This document shows, piece after piece, positions 368-7,416 of a stretch of 44,760 nucleotides of DNA. Position 1 is the stretch's first letter, and every line of letters starts with the position of its first letter. Both the position numbers and the translations under genes were made by a program. The notes below the pieces were generated by a model, which was given only the letters and a program-made list of their open reading frames with translations, was not told the origin of the DNA and searched no databases. This DNA is from Candidatus Saccharimonadales bacterium (GTDB lineage Bacteria; Patescibacteriota; Saccharimonadia; Saccharimonadales; SZUA-47), in NCBI GenBank assembly GCA_041737385.1, contig JBGSRU010000010.1:1-44760 (forward strand), read 5' to 3'.

Positions 368-2917
368 ATGGTTCAAACGCTTCCTCCACCACCATCTCCA
401 GACTTATTGCCACCGCCAAGTGCAGGTGATCAAGTTCTTGCCGGATCTACCCAGCTCAACTTAGGAAAAGTGGGACTTGAAGCGGTCCGGGTTTTATATC
501 TAAATAATCCTGAAGATGGAGTTGTTACAGAAGCAAGTTGGCTTGGTCATTGGGTAGAGGCCAATCTCGGAAAAGACGAAAAACTCCAAGACAGATCAAA
601 TGACCCAACAATTTTCGCGAATGCTGAATATAGGGGCAACCACTTAAGAATAGAGCCGACCGAAGATCAAGAAGCATGGATTAAAGCCATGAACAGGAAA
701 GACATGGTTCTCAGCGAGACAGCAATACGCAGACTATGGCATTCAATAAAAGCCCGATCAAAAGCAAAAACAGCTATGTTGAAGTTTTTGGGAGAAATTC
801 CGAAACGACCGCACGGAATGGCTGTCGAAAAGGCGAATACTCTAGAACCAAAACATAAAAACCCAGAAACAGGCTCATCACCTGAAAGAGGGCCAAGTAT
901 ATATGATTTTGCTATTGATATTGATAAGATTGAGAGTTCTTTTGAGAATAGATATGCATTAGACGACAGTAACGGAAGAGCTCCTAATGACCCTAATTGG
1001 AAACCAACTTTCGAAACAACCAAGGATATTAATGGGCGAAAGGTGGGCGAAGACGGTTATATCGAAACGTTCAAAAATCGTATTAGCGTCGAGGAGGTAC
1101 GAGACTATCTAACTGGCGTTAACCTCTCTGACACAAAGGACCCAGAAATGGAGCAATACCTCCGGAATCCTTTTGAGCGCGAAGCAACAGGCTTAAGCTT
1201 GTGGGACAAGTGGAGCGATAGCATAAAGGCTAGAGCCCACAAATTTTTGACCTCAAAAGTCGACAGCACAAAGCCTTGGAGTATCGAAACAGTAATCGCT
1301 GAAGCAAATAAACATGCGCTCGAGGTAATGCAAAAGACAACTGGCACAGGCCCAGATGGAATCCTACGCCTGCTTATGAAATACAACATGAGTGGTGATA
1401 ATGACGGCAGAATCGTTGATTTTGAGGGTGATGAACTAACTGGTGTCGAGCTGGAGATGCGTAAAAACATTCTCAAATTACTTAGATCTGACTCAGGATC
1501 TTATGTACAGGCTTTGGCAACTTATGAGTTTACCAAAAACCCTCACCAAGATTATTACAAATTCTTTGAGCGCTATATGGATGTCTTATCTGTGGAGTTC
1601 AATTACAGCAAAGAGCAAGTTGAAGGCGCAGTAATCGGTCTTGCATATTCACACAAATCTCTCGGTAATGTCGCGAAAAACTCAATGCTCGTGTATAGAG
1701 AAATGCTCGACAGGAACGGCAATACCATGATGTCACCGAAGCTCAACGACAATGGCGAAAGACAATATCTAGACAAAGAAGGTAACGCCGTCGGGGAAAG
1801 TGAAGTGAAAGACCTAAACACCACTAGTCCGTACCGCCTCATTGAAGTACCCTATACACAGCCAAATGGAGTACAGACTATTGTCACTCGTCGAGTCAAT
1901 ATTGAGACAAAAAACGAGCTCACTATTGGCGCAGACGGTAGGGCATATGCAACGTACACGGATCATGAAGGCAACGCAGTCAGCAAGGACCAGATTATAG
2001 ACTTTGACGGGCGGTCACCATATCACGAAGTTACAAGAAGTAACGGCACAGTCGACAGAGTAGCAATAAGAGCAGGCTCCACAGTACCTGACGAACAGGG
2101 TAATCCACAACGCATGTTCTTAGACGCTCGTGGACAAAAAATAAGAGAAGATAAAATCTTAGGACTGAATACAGCCAATCCTTACCATGAAGTTACTGCT
2201 GGAGGCACGACACTACAGATACCAGTAGACATTAGTGCTGGCGAGCTACCAATAATGATTGCGAGAAAAATACCAAAATTAATCGTTGAACCTGCCACAG
2301 ATAAGTCTAGGTACATGTTCAAGGAACTTAAGTTACGTGAATGGGTTATGGAAGTCGGTTCAAGAATGAGCGCCCAACAGTTTGCTTTTGAGCCAGCACA
2401 AATGGAAGATATACTTGAAAAAGTCATAGAAATATCTATGGTTATGAGACGAAGTTTCTATGAACCAAACATTCAAGAAACAAACGGAAAAAGAATTAGA
2501 CGTACTCGATGGCACGGTACTTCGTTTGATGATCGACGATTTGTTGGGCGCAAAAGTGCTGAATTTGCAGAAATGCAAACAGCTGCCCATTTCTTGTGGA
2601 GCGCGTTCAGCGAGCTACTTACAAACACACCTGGCGGTCCGGACGGCGGTGGTGGTGGTGATGGTGCACAGATAACTCCTGAGCAGTTGAATGCAGCAAG
2701 AAACGCACTGCTATTAAACCAGAAAATGAACGCGGAAAAAGGTGGCTATTTTGATCCTAGAATGTACGGAGCAGGAGGAATATCTAACAAGATCTTAGCG
2801 GATATCGCACACCAGCTACAATTTCTGATGATACAGTTCCCATCAGCCACAGAGACGCCTCACGGTGACTATTACACACTTGAGCAAAGATTTAAAACAA
2901 TTCCTCGTAAAAAATAA
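368..2917 (+). CDS. Hypothetical 849-aa protein with three internal repeats, upstream of the T4SS genes
   Basis: Long ORF, Pro-rich N-terminus, three copies of a [YF]xDxxG..SPY/NPY repeat; no family recognised. Confidence 0.85.
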   Translation: MVQTLPPPPSPDLLPPPSAGDQVLAGSTQLNLGKVGLEAVRVLYLNNPEDGVVTEASWLGHWVEANLGKDEKLQDRSNDPTIFANAEYRGNHLRIEPTEDQEAWIKAMNRKDMVLSETAIRRLWHSIKARSKAKTAMLKFLGEIPKRPHGMAVEKANTLEPKHKNPETGSSPERGPSIYDFAIDIDKIESSFENRYALDDSNGRAPNDPNWKPTFETTKDINGRKVGEDGYIETFKNRISVEEVRDYLTGVNLSDTKDPEMEQYLRNPFEREATGLSLWDKWSDSIKARAHKFLTSKVDSTKPWSIETVIAEANKHALEVMQKTTGTGPDGILRLLMKYNMSGDNDGRIVDFEGDELTGVELEMRKNILKLLRSDSGSYVQALATYEFTKNPHQDYYKFFERYMDVLSVEFNYSKEQVEGAVIGLAYSHKSLGNVAKNSMLVYREMLDRNGNTMMSPKLNDNGERQYLDKEGNAVGESEVKDLNTTSPYRLIEVPYTQPNGVQTIVTRRVNIETKNELTIGADGRAYATYTDHEGNAVSKDQIIDFDGRSPYHEVTRSNGTVDRVAIRAGSTVPDEQGNPQRMFLDARGQKIREDKILGLNTANPYHEVTAGGTTLQIPVDISAGELPIMIARKIPKLIVEPATDKSRYMFKELKLREWVMEVGSRMSAQQFAFEPAQMEDILEKVIEISMVMRRSFYEPNIQETNGKRIRRTRWHGTSFDDRRFVGRKSAEFAEMQTAAHFLWSAFSELLTNTPGGPDGGGGGDGAQITPEQLNAARNALLLNQKMNAEKGGYFDPRMYGAGGISNKILADIAHQLQFLMIQFPSATETPHGDYYTLEQRFKTIPRKK

Positions 2918-3037
2918 CCTACCGTTGGCACAAGTTTCTGTAAGTACCAGACAGGCCGTGTAAACTTCTACAGACATTACCTGCGCGTTGAATTGCTCGT
3001 TACGAAAAAGCTTTTCATCTGTTAAACTATAAGCATT

Positions 3038-4204
3038 ATGGCGGTGTATAAAGTTCCTCAAGATGTTGAAGCTGAAGATAAATTCTTTGGTCCGTTTTCA
3101 TTTAAGCAGTTCATCTTTTTTGGTGGAGTTGCTGTCTGTGGCTATCTCGTATTCTTAACTGCCTCGAATGGCATATGGCCCCTATCAATTGTGTTTGCCG
3201 TGCCGATGATTGCCTTTGGGTTCCTTGCGTTTCCATGGAGCAAGGAACAGCCAACTGAATTATGGCTGGCGGCTCATGTACGATTTCTTTTCATGAAGCG
3301 AAAACGAATCTGGGACCAAGCGGGCATAAAAGATCTCGTCACCATAACCGCTCCCAAGCGCGAGTTTCATGCACTAACAGATGGACTCAGCCAAGACGAG
3401 GTACGCAACAGATTTAATGCGCTGGCGTCTGTTGTCGATAGTAGGGGGTGGGCGGTAAAAAACCTCGTGAACAACGGGCAAGATAGTGACCGATTGGCAA
3501 CTGCAAGTGCTACAGCTTCAACTTTCTACGAAGAAGCCCTGACGCAAGAAAAAGACGTACTAGACGCTGAAACCAACCCGCTTGCTAGACAGTTTGACGA
3601 GCTTATCGACGAATCAGCTAACAAACAAAAGCAACAAGCACTAAACAGAATTCAGGAAGCTCGTGATGCATCGCGCGGGGGTGGCGTAAACTTGCCGGCC
3701 GTATCACCGCAAAGTTCTGCGTCTATAACACAGGCTACTCCAGCAGTAGACTATTCGTTCTTAGACAAGCAAGAACCTACCGAACCAGGACTGGCAAGCT
3801 TTAAACAACAAAGCGTAGTGCAACCAGGGACGCCTGCCGTGCAAAAGACGGCGCCTATAGGCATGGGTGTGCCAGTCGCGGCTATTAATGAAAACGACGA
3901 GCAGGAACTACTCAAAAAAGTTCATCAACAGCAACAGCTCGATGCAGAAATTAAGCAACATAGTCATCTAAAAACTATCCTTCCGGCCGGAGCTCAACAA
4001 CAGGCACAAGTAGCGAGCAATCATACGGCTACAGATGACGATGCAACTAAAGCAATAGAAAATGCTCAAGCTTCTAGTGCAACCCCTGTTAACCCTGCTA
4101 TACTTGAGCTAGCAGGCAATGACGACCTCAACGTAGAGACTTTAGCGCGTCAAGCGAAAAAAGATATGCCAGATGAGGGCGAAGTAATCATATCGCTTCA
4201 TTAG
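3038..4204 (+). CDS. PrgI-family (VirB3-like) T4SS membrane protein with long low-complexity C-terminus
   Basis: N-terminal YKVPQDVEAEDKFFGPFSFKQF followed by two TM helices is the typical PrgI-family pattern; lies upstream of VirB4. Confidence 0.8.
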   Translation: MAVYKVPQDVEAEDKFFGPFSFKQFIFFGGVAVCGYLVFLTASNGIWPLSIVFAVPMIAFGFLAFPWSKEQPTELWLAAHVRFLFMKRKRIWDQAGIKDLVTITAPKREFHALTDGLSQDEVRNRFNALASVVDSRGWAVKNLVNNGQDSDRLATASATASTFYEEALTQEKDVLDAETNPLARQFDELIDESANKQKQQALNRIQEARDASRGGGVNLPAVSPQSSASITQATPAVDYSFLDKQEPTEPGLASFKQQSVVQPGTPAVQKTAPIGMGVPVAAINENDEQELLKKVHQQQQLDAEIKQHSHLKTILPAGAQQQAQVASNHTATDDDATKAIENAQASSATPVNPAILELAGNDDLNVETLARQAKKDMPDEGEVIISLH

Positions 4205-4224
4205 AATATAAGGTGGAAAAGTAA

Positions 4225-5016
4225 GTGAACCCAAACCAACAAGCTCAACAAGGGATACCGCAGCCAGCTGCTGCAGTACCACCGTTAGCGACGCCGACAA
4301 ATCGGACGAGCACACAGAATACGCTAGAGATTGCTGAGATTCGTGATGGCATCGTTATTATGAACGACGGGAGCTATCGAGCAGTTATCAACTGCCAGAG
4401 CATCAACTTTGATCTCATGAGTCCGCAAGAACGAGAAGCGGTTGAGTTTAGTTACCAAGGGTTTTTGAACTCTTTGTACTTTCCGGTGCAGGCGTTTGTG
4501 CGCAGCCAAAAAGTCGACCTGAGGCCATACATCGAACGACTTGATAAAATTCGCTCAGAACACGACAATATGTTGCTAGCGCTGCTAATGGATGATTATC
4601 TCAACTACATTGAAGATTTAGCTCAGCAAACAAACATCATGGACAAAAAGTTCTACATGGTGATTCCGTTTTTCAAGCAGCTCGATGCGCAGAAAGCCGT
4701 TCAAGCAAGTAAAAGTTTCTTTGCGACAGCGTTTGGCAAAAAAGATCAGCACGTGGTGATTAATGAAGTTGACCTAGAGCAGGCGAAAACCGAACTAAAA
4801 AATCGTATTCAAGCCGTCATGTCAGGGTTGCAACAGTGCGGTGTTAGCTCTGTTCCACTCGACACACAAGAGCTTATTGAGCTGTACTATGATGCATACA
4901 ATCCTGACACCGCAACACGCCAACCACTTAAGAATTTTGAAGCGATGAACGAGCCGGTGATCGAAAAGGGTGTCGGTGAAGCTGCACAACCGCAGCTTGA
5001 AAAGGAACTCGGCTAA
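4225..5016 (+). CDS. Conserved T4SS-associated protein (resembles VirB4/TraC N-terminal region)
   Basis: GTG start; motifs EIRDGIVI, SINFDLMS..E, FLNSLYFPVQ, LDTQELIELYY..YNP; located between prgI and virB4. Confidence 0.7.
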   Translation: MNPNQQAQQGIPQPAAAVPPLATPTNRTSTQNTLEIAEIRDGIVIMNDGSYRAVINCQSINFDLMSPQEREAVEFSYQGFLNSLYFPVQAFVRSQKVDLRPYIERLDKIRSEHDNMLLALLMDDYLNYIEDLAQQTNIMDKKFYMVIPFFKQLDAQKAVQASKSFFATAFGKKDQHVVINEVDLEQAKTELKNRIQAVMSGLQQCGVSSVPLDTQELIELYYDAYNPDTATRQPLKNFEAMNEPVIEKGVGEAAQPQLEKELG

Positions 5017-5018
5017 AA

Positions 5019-5429
5019 ATGAAACACGAAGCTCGAAACACGAAGCTCGAAACAAATTCGAATTCAGAAAAAGCTAAACCCCTTTATGATTTAGAGGAGC
5101 GTACTTTAGAGTTTGCAAAGTCCACAAGAAGCCTGAGTAGGGTTTTAGCTCGAGATATCGCTAACAATGAAGACATTAAGCAGTTAGTGAGATCTTCTGG
5201 ATCTGTTGGTGCAAATTATATTGAAGCAAATGATTCATTGAGCAAGAAAGATTTTTTAATGCGGGTTAAAATAGCTAAAAAAGAAGCCAAAGAAAGTATA
5301 TTTTGGCTAAGACTTTTAAAAGTGACTGACGCACAGGAAGCATCCCGAATTTCTCTCATGAAAGAAGCGGCAGAGATAATGAATATTTTAGGCGCTATTC
5401 AAAGAAAATCAGAAGGAGATTCTAAATGA
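5019..5429 (+). CDS. Four-helix-bundle protein (23S rRNA IVS protein / Avd-like family)
   Basis: YDLEERT..F, QLVRSSGSVGANYIEA, SKKDF...KIAKKEAKESIFWLRLL match the family pattern. Confidence 0.9.
   Translation: MKHEARNTKLETNSNSEKAKPLYDLEERTLEFAKSTRSLSRVLARDIANNEDIKQLVRSSGSVGANYIEANDSLSKKDFLMRVKIAKKEAKESIFWLRLLKVTDAQEASRISLMKEAAEIMNILGAIQRKSEGDSK
5021..5062 (+). repeat. Left arm: 7-nt periodic repeat GAAACAC GAAGCTC GAAACAC GAAGCTC GAAACAA
   Basis: Exact 14-mer duplication at 5021-5034 and 5035-5048; encodes the N-terminus MKHEARNTKLETNS. Confidence 0.9.
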
Positions 5430-5515
5430 CTCCTACGTTTCTAATCTCCAGCTTCTCGTTTGTTTCGTATTTCGAGTTTCGTATTTCGAGTTTTGCCTCC
5501 AAAGGAGGCATATAG
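5426..5515 (+). CDS. Putative 29-aa coupling peptide MTPTFLISSFSFVSYFEFRISSFASKGGI
   Basis: SD AAGGAG 5413-5418; ATG overlaps the upstream TGA (ATGA); its TAG 5513-5515 overlaps the virB4 GTG (TAGTG). Confidence 0.5.
   Translation: MTPTFLISSFSFVSYFEFRISSFASKGGI
5459..5494 (+). repeat. Right arm: inverted copy of the left-arm heptamer repeat
   Basis: TTTGTTTCGTATTTCGAGTTTCGTATTTCGAGTTTT; its reverse complement AAAACTC GAAATAC GAAACTC GAAATAC GAAACAAA closely matches the left arm. Confidence 0.9.
5494..5510 (+). promoter_or_regulatory. Perfect hairpin TGCCTCC-AAA-GGAGGCA containing the virB4 Shine-Dalgarno
   Basis: 7-bp stem; AAGGAGG (5502-5508) ends 6 nt before GTG 5515. Confidence 0.7.
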
Positions 5516-7416
5516 TGGGTTTGTTTAAAAAGAAAAACAACGTCGTTGATCCTATTGCTCTTGCACAGATGCAGGCTGCTCGTGAGCAACAAGAAGTACA
5601 AGTTGCCTTCCAAAAAGGTGTCACTGCATTGCGTGATTTTATCGCACCAGCTAGCCTAGAGTTTGAGTCAAGTATGTTCAAAATCGGCACTCGACTAGCG
5701 AGAACCTATTACGTGTATGGTTACCCTCGCCGTCTGTATACCGGTTGGCTCAGTAGTATGGTGAACCTGGACGAAGTCATGGATATGTCGATTTTTATCT
5801 ACCCAGTTGAGAGCCAGGTTGTCCTCGAAAGTCTTCGTAAAAAAGTAGGACAACTTGAAGCCGGACTCCAAATCGATGCCGAAAAGGGTAAAGTTCGCGA
5901 TCCGGGCAAGCAAGCGGCTATTGTTGACGCTGAGGAGCTACGCGACAAACTGCAGGTTGGCGAAGAGCGATTCTTCCGTTTTGGGCTATATTTTACTCTC
6001 TACGCTAACTCTATGGAAGAAATGGAATATGTAACGCACAAAGTTGAAAGTGTACTGGCTCAACAGCTGGTCTACAGTAAGCCAGCCAGCGCCCAGCAGG
6101 AGCAAGGACTCAACTCAACGCTTCCGCAGTTTACTGATCAACTGCAGATTCGTCGCAACATGAACACCGGAGCAATTAGTACCAGTTTCCCGTTCACTAG
6201 TGCAGACCTTAGCCAAGAAAACGGCATTTTGTACGGCATTAATATGCACAACTCTGGGCTGGTTATATTTGATCGGTTCTCTCTAGAAAACGGCAACAGT
6301 GTCGTGTTTGCAAAGTCTGGTGCGGGTAAAAGCTTTACGGTGAAACTAGAAGCGCTCAGAAGTATGATGTTTGGCACTGAAGTATTTATTATTGATCCGG
6401 AAAACGAATACGAAAAGATGTGTGACGCAGTTGGTGGCGCCTATATTCGGCTCAGCCTCAGCAGTAAAACCCGCATAAATCCGTTTGACCTACCGAAGGT
6501 TTCTGAACAAGAAGAGGCCGACAATGCGCTTCGTAGCAACCTTATCACCCTTCACGGATTGCTCCGACTAATGATGGGCGGGGCGCAGGCACAAGCAGCT
6601 GGCAGCACAACGCCGGCGATGAACCCAGTCGAAGAAGCCGACCTCGACGCGGCACTTATCGAAACGTATGCAAGAGCAGGTATCACCAACGATCCACTGA
6701 CGCATAATTCACCGCCGCCAACGATTGCGAGCCTATATGACACATTGCTACACATGGGCGGAACTGGCCCACAACTCGCACAGCGTCTACGAAAATACAC
6801 GACTGGAACTTTTGCTGGTATATTCAGCCAACCAAGCAACGTGGAGATCAATAATCCACTTGTGGTCTTCAACATTCGTGACCTAGAAGACGAGCTTCGA
6901 CCAGTAGCAATGTATATCGTGCTTAATTATATCTGGAATAAAACCAAAGCTGACCAACGCAAGCGAATACTTATCGTCGATGAAGCTTGGCAATTAATGA
7001 AGTACGAAGACAGCGCGAGCTTCTTGTTCAGTCTCGCAAAACGAGCAAGGAAGTATAACTTAGGCATCACCACAATCACACAAGATGTGGAAGACTTCAT
7101 GGGCTCTCGTATGGGACGAGCAATAGTCGCAAACGCGAGTATGCAAATACTACTAAAGCAGTCACCGTCTGCGGTTGACGTGCTCGCGGGAGTCTTTCGG
7201 CTTACCAGCGAGGAGAAGAAGCGGTTAAGCCAGTTCCCAGTTGGACAGGGTTTGTTTTTTGCAGGACAGAACCATGTCCATATTCAGATTGCTGCGAGTC
7301 CAACCGAAACACGTCTAATCACTACCAATCCAAACGATGTACAACAACCAAAACAAGAACAGCAAGTAGACTTAAGTCAAACAGGGTACAATAACACTGT
7401 GGAATTAAACCAATAG
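5515..7416 (+). CDS. virB4: VirB4-like T4SS ATPase
   Basis: Walker A AKSGAGKS, IIDPENEY, INPFD, Walker B ILIVDEAW, KRARKYNLG..ITQDV motifs. Confidence 0.92.
   Translation: MGLFKKKNNVVDPIALAQMQAAREQQEVQVAFQKGVTALRDFIAPASLEFESSMFKIGTRLARTYYVYGYPRRLYTGWLSSMVNLDEVMDMSIFIYPVESQVVLESLRKKVGQLEAGLQIDAEKGKVRDPGKQAAIVDAEELRDKLQVGEERFFRFGLYFTLYANSMEEMEYVTHKVESVLAQQLVYSKPASAQQEQGLNSTLPQFTDQLQIRRNMNTGAISTSFPFTSADLSQENGILYGINMHNSGLVIFDRFSLENGNSVVFAKSGAGKSFTVKLEALRSMMFGTEVFIIDPENEYEKMCDAVGGAYIRLSLSSKTRINPFDLPKVSEQEEADNALRSNLITLHGLLRLMMGGAQAQAAGSTTPAMNPVEEADLDAALIETYARAGITNDPLTHNSPPPTIASLYDTLLHMGGTGPQLAQRLRKYTTGTFAGIFSQPSNVEINNPLVVFNIRDLEDELRPVAMYIVLNYIWNKTKADQRKRILIVDEAWQLMKYEDSASFLFSLAKRARKYNLGITTITQDVEDFMGSRMGRAIVANASMQILLKQSPSAVDVLAGVFRLTSEEKKRLSQFPVGQGLFFAGQNHVHIQIAASPTETRLITTNPNDVQQPKQEQQVDLSQTGYNNTVELNQ

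Follow-up and report, generated by a model that had tools for sequence, protein, structure and literature searches.

The operon of the type IV secretion system (T4SS) is regarded as a key to the epibiotic lifestyle of Saccharibacteria, and the locus described here raises the question of what a small gene, enclosed by inverted repeats, is doing inside that operon, between the two halves of its VirB4 ATPase. The locus lies in a stretch of 44,760 nucleotides, hereafter the window, of the Candidatus Saccharimonadales bacterium assembly GCA_041737385.1 (contig JBGSRU010000010.1, forward strand). The genome has 1.16 Mb and is 97% complete; genome and contig are labelled G000 and C11 in the comparisons below. 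The insert spans 498 nt (5017–5514, plus strand) from the stop codon of gene A to the start codon of gene B, and most relatives are without an insert here. It is a promoterless cassette, in which one Avd-like four-helix-bundle gene, designated H, is bracketed by inverted arms of tandem heptamers. We consider it very probably an insertion of the intervening sequence (IVS) type. The whole package, an S23p-type IVS cassette between the virB4 halves together with the scheme of processing and translation proposed below, is likely.

Inverted heptamer arms around a four-helix-bundle gene

Both arms are read here on the plus strand. The left arm (5021–5056) is purine-rich and consists of the tandem heptamers GAAACAC and GAAGCTC, with a CGAA box every 7 nt, while the right arm (5459–5493) is pyrimidine-rich and consists of the tandem heptamers GTTTCGT and ATTTCGA. 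Tandem Repeats Finder resolved 5021–5054 into 2.4 perfect copies of GAAACACGAAGCTC and 5462–5493 into 2.3 perfect copies of GTTTCGTATTTCGA, each with a period of 14 nt at 100%. Both arms also scored as arrays of period 7, at 70–72% (for the left arm, 4.9 copies at 70%). The true repeat unit is two alternating heptamers, with a period of 14 and not a simple period of 7.

The right arm is an imperfect reverse complement of the left arm, and an inverted-repeat search found five pairing registers between them (I1–I5), differing by multiples of the heptamer. In the best register, 5029–5052 pairs with 5470–5493 over 24 nt at 88% Watson-Crick, or, counted by hand, with 21 Watson-Crick pairs, two G:U and one C:A. 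Across all 44.7 kb of the window, 15 inverted repeats have their arms within 700 nt of each other; this pair is the longest of them, with scores of z = 10.7 and 8.6 against 30 shuffles. When 5005–5520 was folded as RNA (−140.8 kcal/mol, z = −4.05, none of 100 shuffled sequences being as stable), the arms were paired in both the minimum free energy (MFE) structure and the centroid structure. The last part of the insert is a small hairpin (5495–5509, plus strand; GCCTCC-AAA-GGAGGC), also present in the MFE fold, of which the 3' half is the Shine-Dalgarno (SD) sequence of gene B and the 5' half its anti-SD. Besides the heptamer arms, 4950–5600 holds only short direct repeats at chance level, no genome-wide search for template/variable repeats having been made.

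Gene H (5019–5429, plus strand) is an open reading frame (ORF) of 136 aa belonging to PF05635/TIGR02436. It matches PF05635 (23S_rRNA_IVP) at 3e-11 (43.9 bits, cut-off 33.8), TIGR02436 ('four helix bundle protein') at 1.1e-16 and PDB entry 2rld at 2.6e-10. The left arm begins 5 nt past the stop codon of A and two bases after the ATG of H, and is therefore translated as the disordered tail of the protein, residues 1–19 of the AlphaFold model. The model (12 subfamily sequences, mean pLDDT 85.8) places the helices at residues 22–42, 50–71, 76–99 and 104–133, and Foldseek ranked BT_0352 (2rld) and Xcc0516 (2gsc) ahead of Avd (4dwl, 8ub7), a protein of diversity-generating retroelements (DGRs). The reading frame is uninterrupted and retains the motif typical of the family, Q..R...S...N..E. 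The unit holds no other ORF, and thus no transposase ORF, and a match to the reverse transcriptase (RT) family RVT_1 is absent from this genome at E≤1e-5. Assignment of H to a defence-system or phage family was rejected, since it has no PADLOC or PHROGs match. The window has no match to any Rfam family; the insert lies outside an rRNA gene, between two protein genes.

These results agree with a sequence-only reading of this DNA, which had proposed a unit of about 500 bp with one four-helix-bundle gene between a VirB4-associated gene and virB4, correctly in coordinates and content by the ORF calls, PF05635 and TIGR02436. Its assignment of the protein to the family of the 23S rRNA IVSs, related to Avd, is likewise supported by the PF05635 match and the Foldseek ranking. 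Of the arms that it described at 5021–5062 and 5459–5494 as periodic at 7 nt, inverted and able to pair in more than one register, the inversion and the registers stood, and the period had to be changed to 14. It had further reported neither transposase, RT nor obvious target duplication. The first two absences hold, for the unit and for the genome, respectively; the third is qualified below.

Occupied and empty junctions at the VirB4 split

The junction of genes A and B was assessed in 54 of the 56 genomes with gene A, leaving out one contig that ends there and one genome with only a paralogue. As for all comparative counts given here, the sample is dominated by metagenome-assembled genomes (MAGs), which are related and non-independent. 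The junction is empty in 42 of the 54 genomes, with the stop codon of A overlapping the start codon of B (TAATG or TAGTG) in 24 of them; two hold an intermediate spacer of 58 and 80 nt, and ten an insert of at least 100 nt. The unit is thus an insertion that is present or absent, in differing versions, at the A|B junction among relatives; fixation of the gene at this site, which the sequence-only reading had named as evidence against its own proposal, was not found.

Five of the ten inserts carry a PF05635 gene. Three of these, in the present genome, G041 and G056, representing three families of the order, belong to the subfamily of H (55–57% identical) and have related arms of the CGAA/GAAG type, whereas those of G007 and G019 belong to the canonical subfamily (about 20% identical to H), with different motifs and with GAACGAG/CGTTC arms. 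Four other inserts (G018, G054, G058 and G051) are gene-less, 114–160 nt long, with tandem heptamers on both sides, such as GTTTACA x4 and CTGTCTA x4 in G018 and CAGATGG-type and CTACCAT-type arms in G054. Three of these four carry an SD hairpin of the same kind as in the window, and two of the four fold significantly (z = −3.9 for G018, −5.0 for G054, −1.7 for G058 and 0 for G051). The insert of G040 (locus L024) is unrelated, about 295 nt long, with 22-bp perfect inverted repeats (ATAGCCCCCGCAAAACAAATTC and its complement) and without heptamers, indicating that the site accepts more than one kind of element. In G007 (locus L067) the left arm is duplicated, as two blocks of GAACGAG x4 about 40 nt apart, and the start codon of B lies within an 11-bp hairpin (TTACAAAACCC-AAG-GGGGTTTTGTAA).

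The 38 nt before the start codon of B fold at −12.2 kcal/mol in the window, and at a median of −11.5 kcal/mol in the 10 inserted junctions vs −3.9 kcal/mol in the 42 empty ones (Mann-Whitney p = 3.6e-4, an overstated significance since the genomes are related and non-independent).

Two comparisons within a genus show the filled and the empty form of one junction. At A|B, G019 is filled and G006 empty; both genomes are unpublished, and on them rest this genus-level pair and two of the junctions counted above, one of them filled and the other empty. At another gene pair, G027 is filled and G024 empty; some 455 nt are cleanly inserted in G027, exactly between a stop codon and the SD of the gene that follows. 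Neither comparison gave evidence of a target duplication. Direct repeats do flank two inserts at A|B, GTAATG in G007 and ATATG in G018, both overlapping the functional stop/start motif. A duplication of the segment from SD to stop codon was considered and rejected, the left and right junctions sharing only functional motifs. The notion that the target is the source of the arms, prompted by ATTCTA at the site in G027 and by GAACAGG at that in G019, has too few cases behind it to be more than an idea.

The inserts of the IVS type are located exactly at the point where VirB4 is split. Gene A (4225–5016, plus strand, 263 aa) is a free-standing N-terminal VirB4-like piece of the TrsD/TraD-like kind. 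In NCBIfam it matches positions 2–119 of the 752 of the CD1110-family VirB4 profile and the TrsD/TraD family at 5e-6, spanning the first 120–285 or so positions of VirB4-type profiles, and a profile search gave a weak match to TraC_F_IV. Gene B (5515–7416, plus strand, 633 aa, GTG start) is the VirB4 ATPase part, matching positions 183–735 of the same 752-position CD1110-family profile at 8e-108, and also TraG P-loop and AAA_10. Based on these profile positions, VirB4 is split, with genes A and B as its two halves, and this holds across the order. A match to gene A is present in 56 of 61 genomes of relatives, the full-length ones being a separate frame of 267–367 aa, and the split was found in all 56 relatives with gene A, where overlap of stop and start codons (TAATG) is usual. 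In the window A, H and B are all co-directional by the ORF calls, and the SD sequence AAGGA, inside the last codons of gene A, now serves the inserted ORF H.

Matches to PF05635 are clustered on T4SS-bearing contigs in two relatives, with seven of the ten rows of G056 on its contig C23 (74.6 kb) and all four rows of G041 on its contig C2 (62 kb). One clustered match (locus L058) is antisense, just upstream of gene A. Neighbourhoods of the T4SS may be hot spots for these cassettes. At the far end of the window, positions 1–207 hold tandem repeats (ACCCCA x11.8, and 48/51-nt units x2.6–3.1) upstream of or at the start of an 849-aa ORF (368–2917) without Pfam or NCBIfam match.

Arms and geometry shared by most PF05635 genes sampled

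A scan of 61 relatives for PF05635 gave matches in 32 genomes, about 80 rows in total and at most 10 per genome. For each gene the 130 nt before the domain were compared with the 130 nt after the stop codon by a symmetric ungapped score, and arms were accepted at z≥4 and a length of at least 18 nt; ungapped detection misses shifted or decayed arms, and the neighbouring ORFs were called mechanically. Arms passed the test in 42 of the 70 testable genes of the relatives, and in 61 of 80 loci of a wide set that covers many classes of the Candidate Phyla Radiation (CPR) together with MAGs of Gammaproteobacteria, Bdellovibrionales and Kiritimatiellales. The arms of an element match each other better than they match the arms of other elements (median 17 vs 9), and 100 of 149 exceeded the 95th percentile obtained when arms were paired across elements. 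Paired inverted heptamer arms in homologues, which the sequence-only reading had put forward as a check, are therefore a feature of the family.

At a self-match of at least 75%, a period of 7 was detected upstream of the gene in 48 of 150 windows and downstream in 57 of 152, and was virtually the sole period, a period of 8 occurring once upstream and once downstream; control windows inside the ORF gave 0 of 153. The sense-strand composition is A 39%, G 24% and C 9% in left arms and T 37%, C 24% and G 9% in right arms, the commonest 4-nt box being GAAT/ATTC. Both neighbouring genes are co-directional with the PF05635 gene in 49 cases vs 5 with both antisense among the relatives, and in 54 vs 1 in the wide set (103 vs 6 in total). 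The geometry of the 100 best-armed elements is tight: by medians, the left arm begins 3 nt past the upstream stop codon, the ORF starts about at the end of the left arm (2 nt before it), the right arm begins 2 nt past the stop codon of the ORF, and the next start codon follows 5 nt past the right arm. The same type of cassette occurs between many unrelated gene pairs. Most PF05635 genes sampled, a true 23S rRNA IVS included, share a purine-rich 5' arm, the ORF, a pyrimidine-rich 3' arm and the sense orientation.

The true IVS in question is on plasmid AZO_p2 of Azospirillum lipoferum 4B (locus L214), where the PF05635 ORF lies at 2501–2818 of the locus, inside the 23S rRNA gene (Rfam LSU, 1277–4475), between GAGGACG/GATGACA heptamer arms with z = 18. 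A copy on a Picosynechococcus plasmid stands between cas10/cmr2 and cmr3 with repeat arms of z = 3.8, a Riemerella copy has AACCTTG arms of z = 7.1, and a Nostoc copy is flanked on either side by heptamers that lack complementarity. A 23S rRNA gene is assembled in 20 of the 61 relatives, and no PF05635 match was found inside any of these genes, indicating that in this clade the 'IVS protein' gene is a resident of operons; in the present genome no 23S rRNA is assembled.

The present genome contains two PF05635 genes. The second (contig C27, 15873–16190, minus strand; locus L001) lies between genes of 482 and 379 aa, its stop codon overlapping the next start codon, with a 12-bp perfect inverted repeat only (TGAGGTTTGAGG/CCTCAAACCTCA) and without heptamer arms. 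The same junction is also occupied in several other genomes (upstream neighbours of 470–482 aa, downstream neighbours of 375–458 aa). This copy looks old, arm-less and possibly domesticated. A second armed element was not found in this genome by an inverted-repeat scan seeded with 8-mers, an insensitive scan that missed the arms of the window too.

A strict scan of this genome for heptamer tracts gave four tracts. In an ArgRS-like gene (contig C16, 45658–45693; locus L218) heptamers stand in frame, GAAACTC x3 ... GAAACAAA, very like the left arm, and encode RNSKLETN, compared with RNTKLETN in the tail of H. Its interpretation as the insertion of a 'solo arm' was rejected, the aligned loci of 24 relatives having a hypervariable linker of similar length. 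In a PrmC-like gene (contig C23, 507514–507554; locus L219) CTCAAAT x4 stands in frame as well. Outside this genome, three metagenome runs of a single study yielded short contigs that match the window at 5021–5063 and 5459–5496 alone, with 85–95% likeness, and continue into unrelated sequence, which points to similar CGAA-type heptamer arms elsewhere in that habitat, in other organisms or other elements.

Known relatives of the insert and how it may be read

Elements of the IVS type have been known from rRNA genes since the 1990s, and 'undescribed system', the term of the sequence-only reading, is too strong for the insert. The other part of that reading, an IVS-like element placed in an mRNA, is upheld by the ORF family, the inverted arms and the heptamers shared with the Azospirillum 23S IVS, in agreement with the heptamers and stem described for Coxiella. 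The passages on this IVS in a study of Coxiella burnetii (PMC4990558) place it in helix 45 of the 23S rRNA, cite S23p-encoding IVSs in Leptospira, Brucella and Xanthomonas too, and describe an S23p ORF with a terminal stem of 28 bp and, upstream of the ORF, two to three tandem GACAGAT heptamers that come after an SD and vary in number between strains. According to the same passages, RNase III cleaves at the first repeat, and this cut removes the SD, so that S23p is probably not made from the processed RNA.

With the S23p-type IVSs of Coxiella and Azospirillum the insert shares the ORF family, terminal inverted repeats that form a stem enclosing the ORF, purine-rich 5' heptamers near the start codon, an ORF in sense to the host transcript, a length of about 430–500 nt, sporadic presence and the lack of a transposase. 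IVSs of this type lie inside an rRNA gene, in helix 9, 25 or 45 of the 23S or in the 16S, and RNase III removes them from the transcript without religation. The insert differs from them in residence, at the junction of two protein-coding cistrons and not in an rRNA helix loop, in supplying an SD hairpin to the downstream gene, and in having its left arm translated as an N-terminal tail. Excision by RNase III is proven for rRNA IVSs; for the insert of the window we infer it. Insertions in CPR rRNA genes are the subject of a preprint by Tsurumaki et al. (10.1101/2024.02.27.582315); the host group is the same at the level of the phylum, but the insertions treated in the parts of it considered here reside in rRNA genes. 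Genes of PF05635 inside cas operons are discussed by Zhang et al. (2013; PMC3936711) as possible cas-associated functions. They resemble H in being small sense genes squeezed between operon genes, the host operon of the window being that of the T4SS instead, and the passages of that paper on these genes mention neither flanking arms nor presence and absence.

For an IVS-type element in an mRNA operon, the following course would apply. The insert would be transcribed within the operon mRNA by read-through from the T4SS promoter, and its arms would pair into a duplex of about 24–35 bp that loops out H and sets the stop codon of A beside the region where B starts. The duplex, by analogy long enough, would be a substrate for RNase III, the gene of which is present in this genome, as in rRNA IVSs; a cut would separate the messages of A and B and sever H from its start codon. 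Uncut, translated RNA, its left arm kept open by ribosomes that leave gene A, would then be the sole source of protein H, and B would stay translated by means of the SD that the element supplies in the small hairpin. The element itself would be selfish or near-neutral, and long-lived. By analogy with the rRNA elements, we put processing by RNase III in vivo at about an even chance.

Several observations weigh against this reading. Arms fall below the threshold in 28 of 70 and 19 of 80 genes, including the second copy of this genome (z = 3.1). Mismatches within arms are G:U in 77 vs A:C in 100 cases among the relatives and 70 vs 86 in the wide set; without an excess of G:U on the sense strand, selection for pairing of the sense RNA is not visible. 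Right arms are often cleaner arrays than left arms, suggesting that each arm homogenises on its own. Complementarity created or maintained at the level of DNA would fit, for example by template switching in quasi-palindromes. No near-identical copies occur within one genome, the best same-genome pair being 78% identical over 134 nt, and the only close pair of elements is orthologous, between two genomes of one genus. No recent transposition is seen, and some copies at the same site may be old, vertically inherited with losses; slow turnover, with old and individually distinct copies, would fit. Six of the 'empty' junctions contain spacers of 16–25 nt with mini-ORFs of 4–7 codons, possible deletion scars, so that the state of a junction may reflect either gain or loss. 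Metagenome contigs from what is probably the source sample, and from two further runs of that study, contained neither joint, empty-site form nor variant, from which nothing is concluded.

A rival reading is set at the level of DNA, in which the arms are terminal inverted repeats (TIRs) of a foldback element, serving a DNA transaction, and the RNA stem is incidental. The route might be recognition of a hairpin or cruciform, template switching, or a recombinase perhaps involving the four-helix-bundle protein. MITEs (miniature inverted-repeat transposable elements) and foldback elements are short units bounded by inverted repeats, with gene-less miniatures, and occupy intergenic insertion spots; the insert likewise has terminal inverted repeats and a family with gene-less miniatures. 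The missing G:U excess over A:C, the clean insertion in G027 compared with G024, the direct repeats at the insert ends in G007 and G018, and arms that differ between elements and yet stay complementary all suit such an element, as does the occurrence of the gene-less miniatures in genomes with a PF05635 gene elsewhere (4 of 4 vs 32 of 61 overall). In contrast to MITEs, however, there is no family of near-identical copies, the arms are internally tandem heptamers and differ from element to element, no clear target-site duplication is evident in the two genus-level pairs, orientation is strongly biased, and there is no cognate transposase. Nor does the unit contain an RT: RVT_1 was found in 11 of the 61 genomes, the present one not among them, and 23 of the 32 PF05635-positive genomes have no match, on which ground dependence on an RT was rejected. 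The bias toward sense (103 vs 6) and the fixed purine/pyrimidine polarity are not needed by a symmetric DNA signal, and the arms hug stop and start codons. We regard this reading, its candidate routes included, as unlikely.

Still less probable is a fixed regulatory module that serves the host by tuning the ratio of A to B of the split VirB4, and that is neither mobile nor selfish. The exact position at the split, the anti-SD/SD hairpin brought before B, and the age of the copies with their intact ORF and conserved family motif would suit it, but the operon operates in 42 of 54 relatives with nothing inserted at the junction, the A|B site is taken by different subfamilies and by gene-less versions, and the same type of cassette stands between many unrelated gene pairs, in cmr operons (as treated in passages of PMC3936711) and in rRNA. 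A remnant of a DGR, that is, an Avd gene without its RT and template repeat, is hardly credible. H has the four-helix-bundle fold of Avd (Foldseek TM-score to target 0.65–0.79), described in the text considered here of one preprint (10.1101/2023.10.23.563531) as a positively charged pentamer that binds RT and RNA, and one weak PF05635 match in the relative G016 adjoins an RT gene. Against this, H is 13–18% identical to Avd, and the cassette stands alone in inverted heptamer arms, its only repeats, without RT and, within 4950–5600, without template/variable repeats. Its neighbours are the VirB4 halves, this genome has no RT match at E≤1e-5, and many genomes show the 498-nt unit whole and in this very form.

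IVS elements and their S23p ORF have been unexplained since the early 1990s, and PF05635/TIGR02436 is often annotated as a stray 'four helix bundle protein'. In searches of a literature that took in few subscription journals and no supplements, we came upon no report of IVS-type cassettes residing in protein-coding operons, of the heptamer arms, polarity and geometry as a family trait (save the heptamers in the Coxiella paper), or of gene-less versions outside rRNA. Most of the 150 genes sampled have inverted heptamer arms with a fixed polarity, tight against the stop and start codons of their neighbours and in sense, and most lie in protein-coding operons and not in rRNA, by which a ribosomal curiosity becomes a general cassette-type element. 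A simple sequence rule is now available for finding gene-less relatives, and the view of these units as cassettes predicts cuts by RNase III within mRNAs, coupling of the flanking cistrons and recognition of the arms by the protein.

Only tentatively can this be carried to a joint proposal, that heptamer-armed four-helix-bundle cassettes form a distinct class of transposase-less elements, of which the rRNA IVSs are a special case that happened to be noticed first, with arms that splint the transcript and are recognised by the protein. If this were true, the natural home of the elements would be the junction between cistrons, where pairing of the arms would keep the upstream stop codon adjacent to the downstream start codon, and the flanking genes, here the VirB4 halves, would stay translationally coupled or be cleanly separated by RNase III. 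Recognition by an Avd-like pentamer of its own heptamer array would explain why each of up to ten copies per genome has a different heptamer, and such elements could bring about the fission of genes, just as they fragment rRNA. The insert of the window is an ordinary member, and the interest is in what the family turns out to be; for the organism, the T4SS operon carries here a possible point of processing or translational control between the two halves of VirB4.

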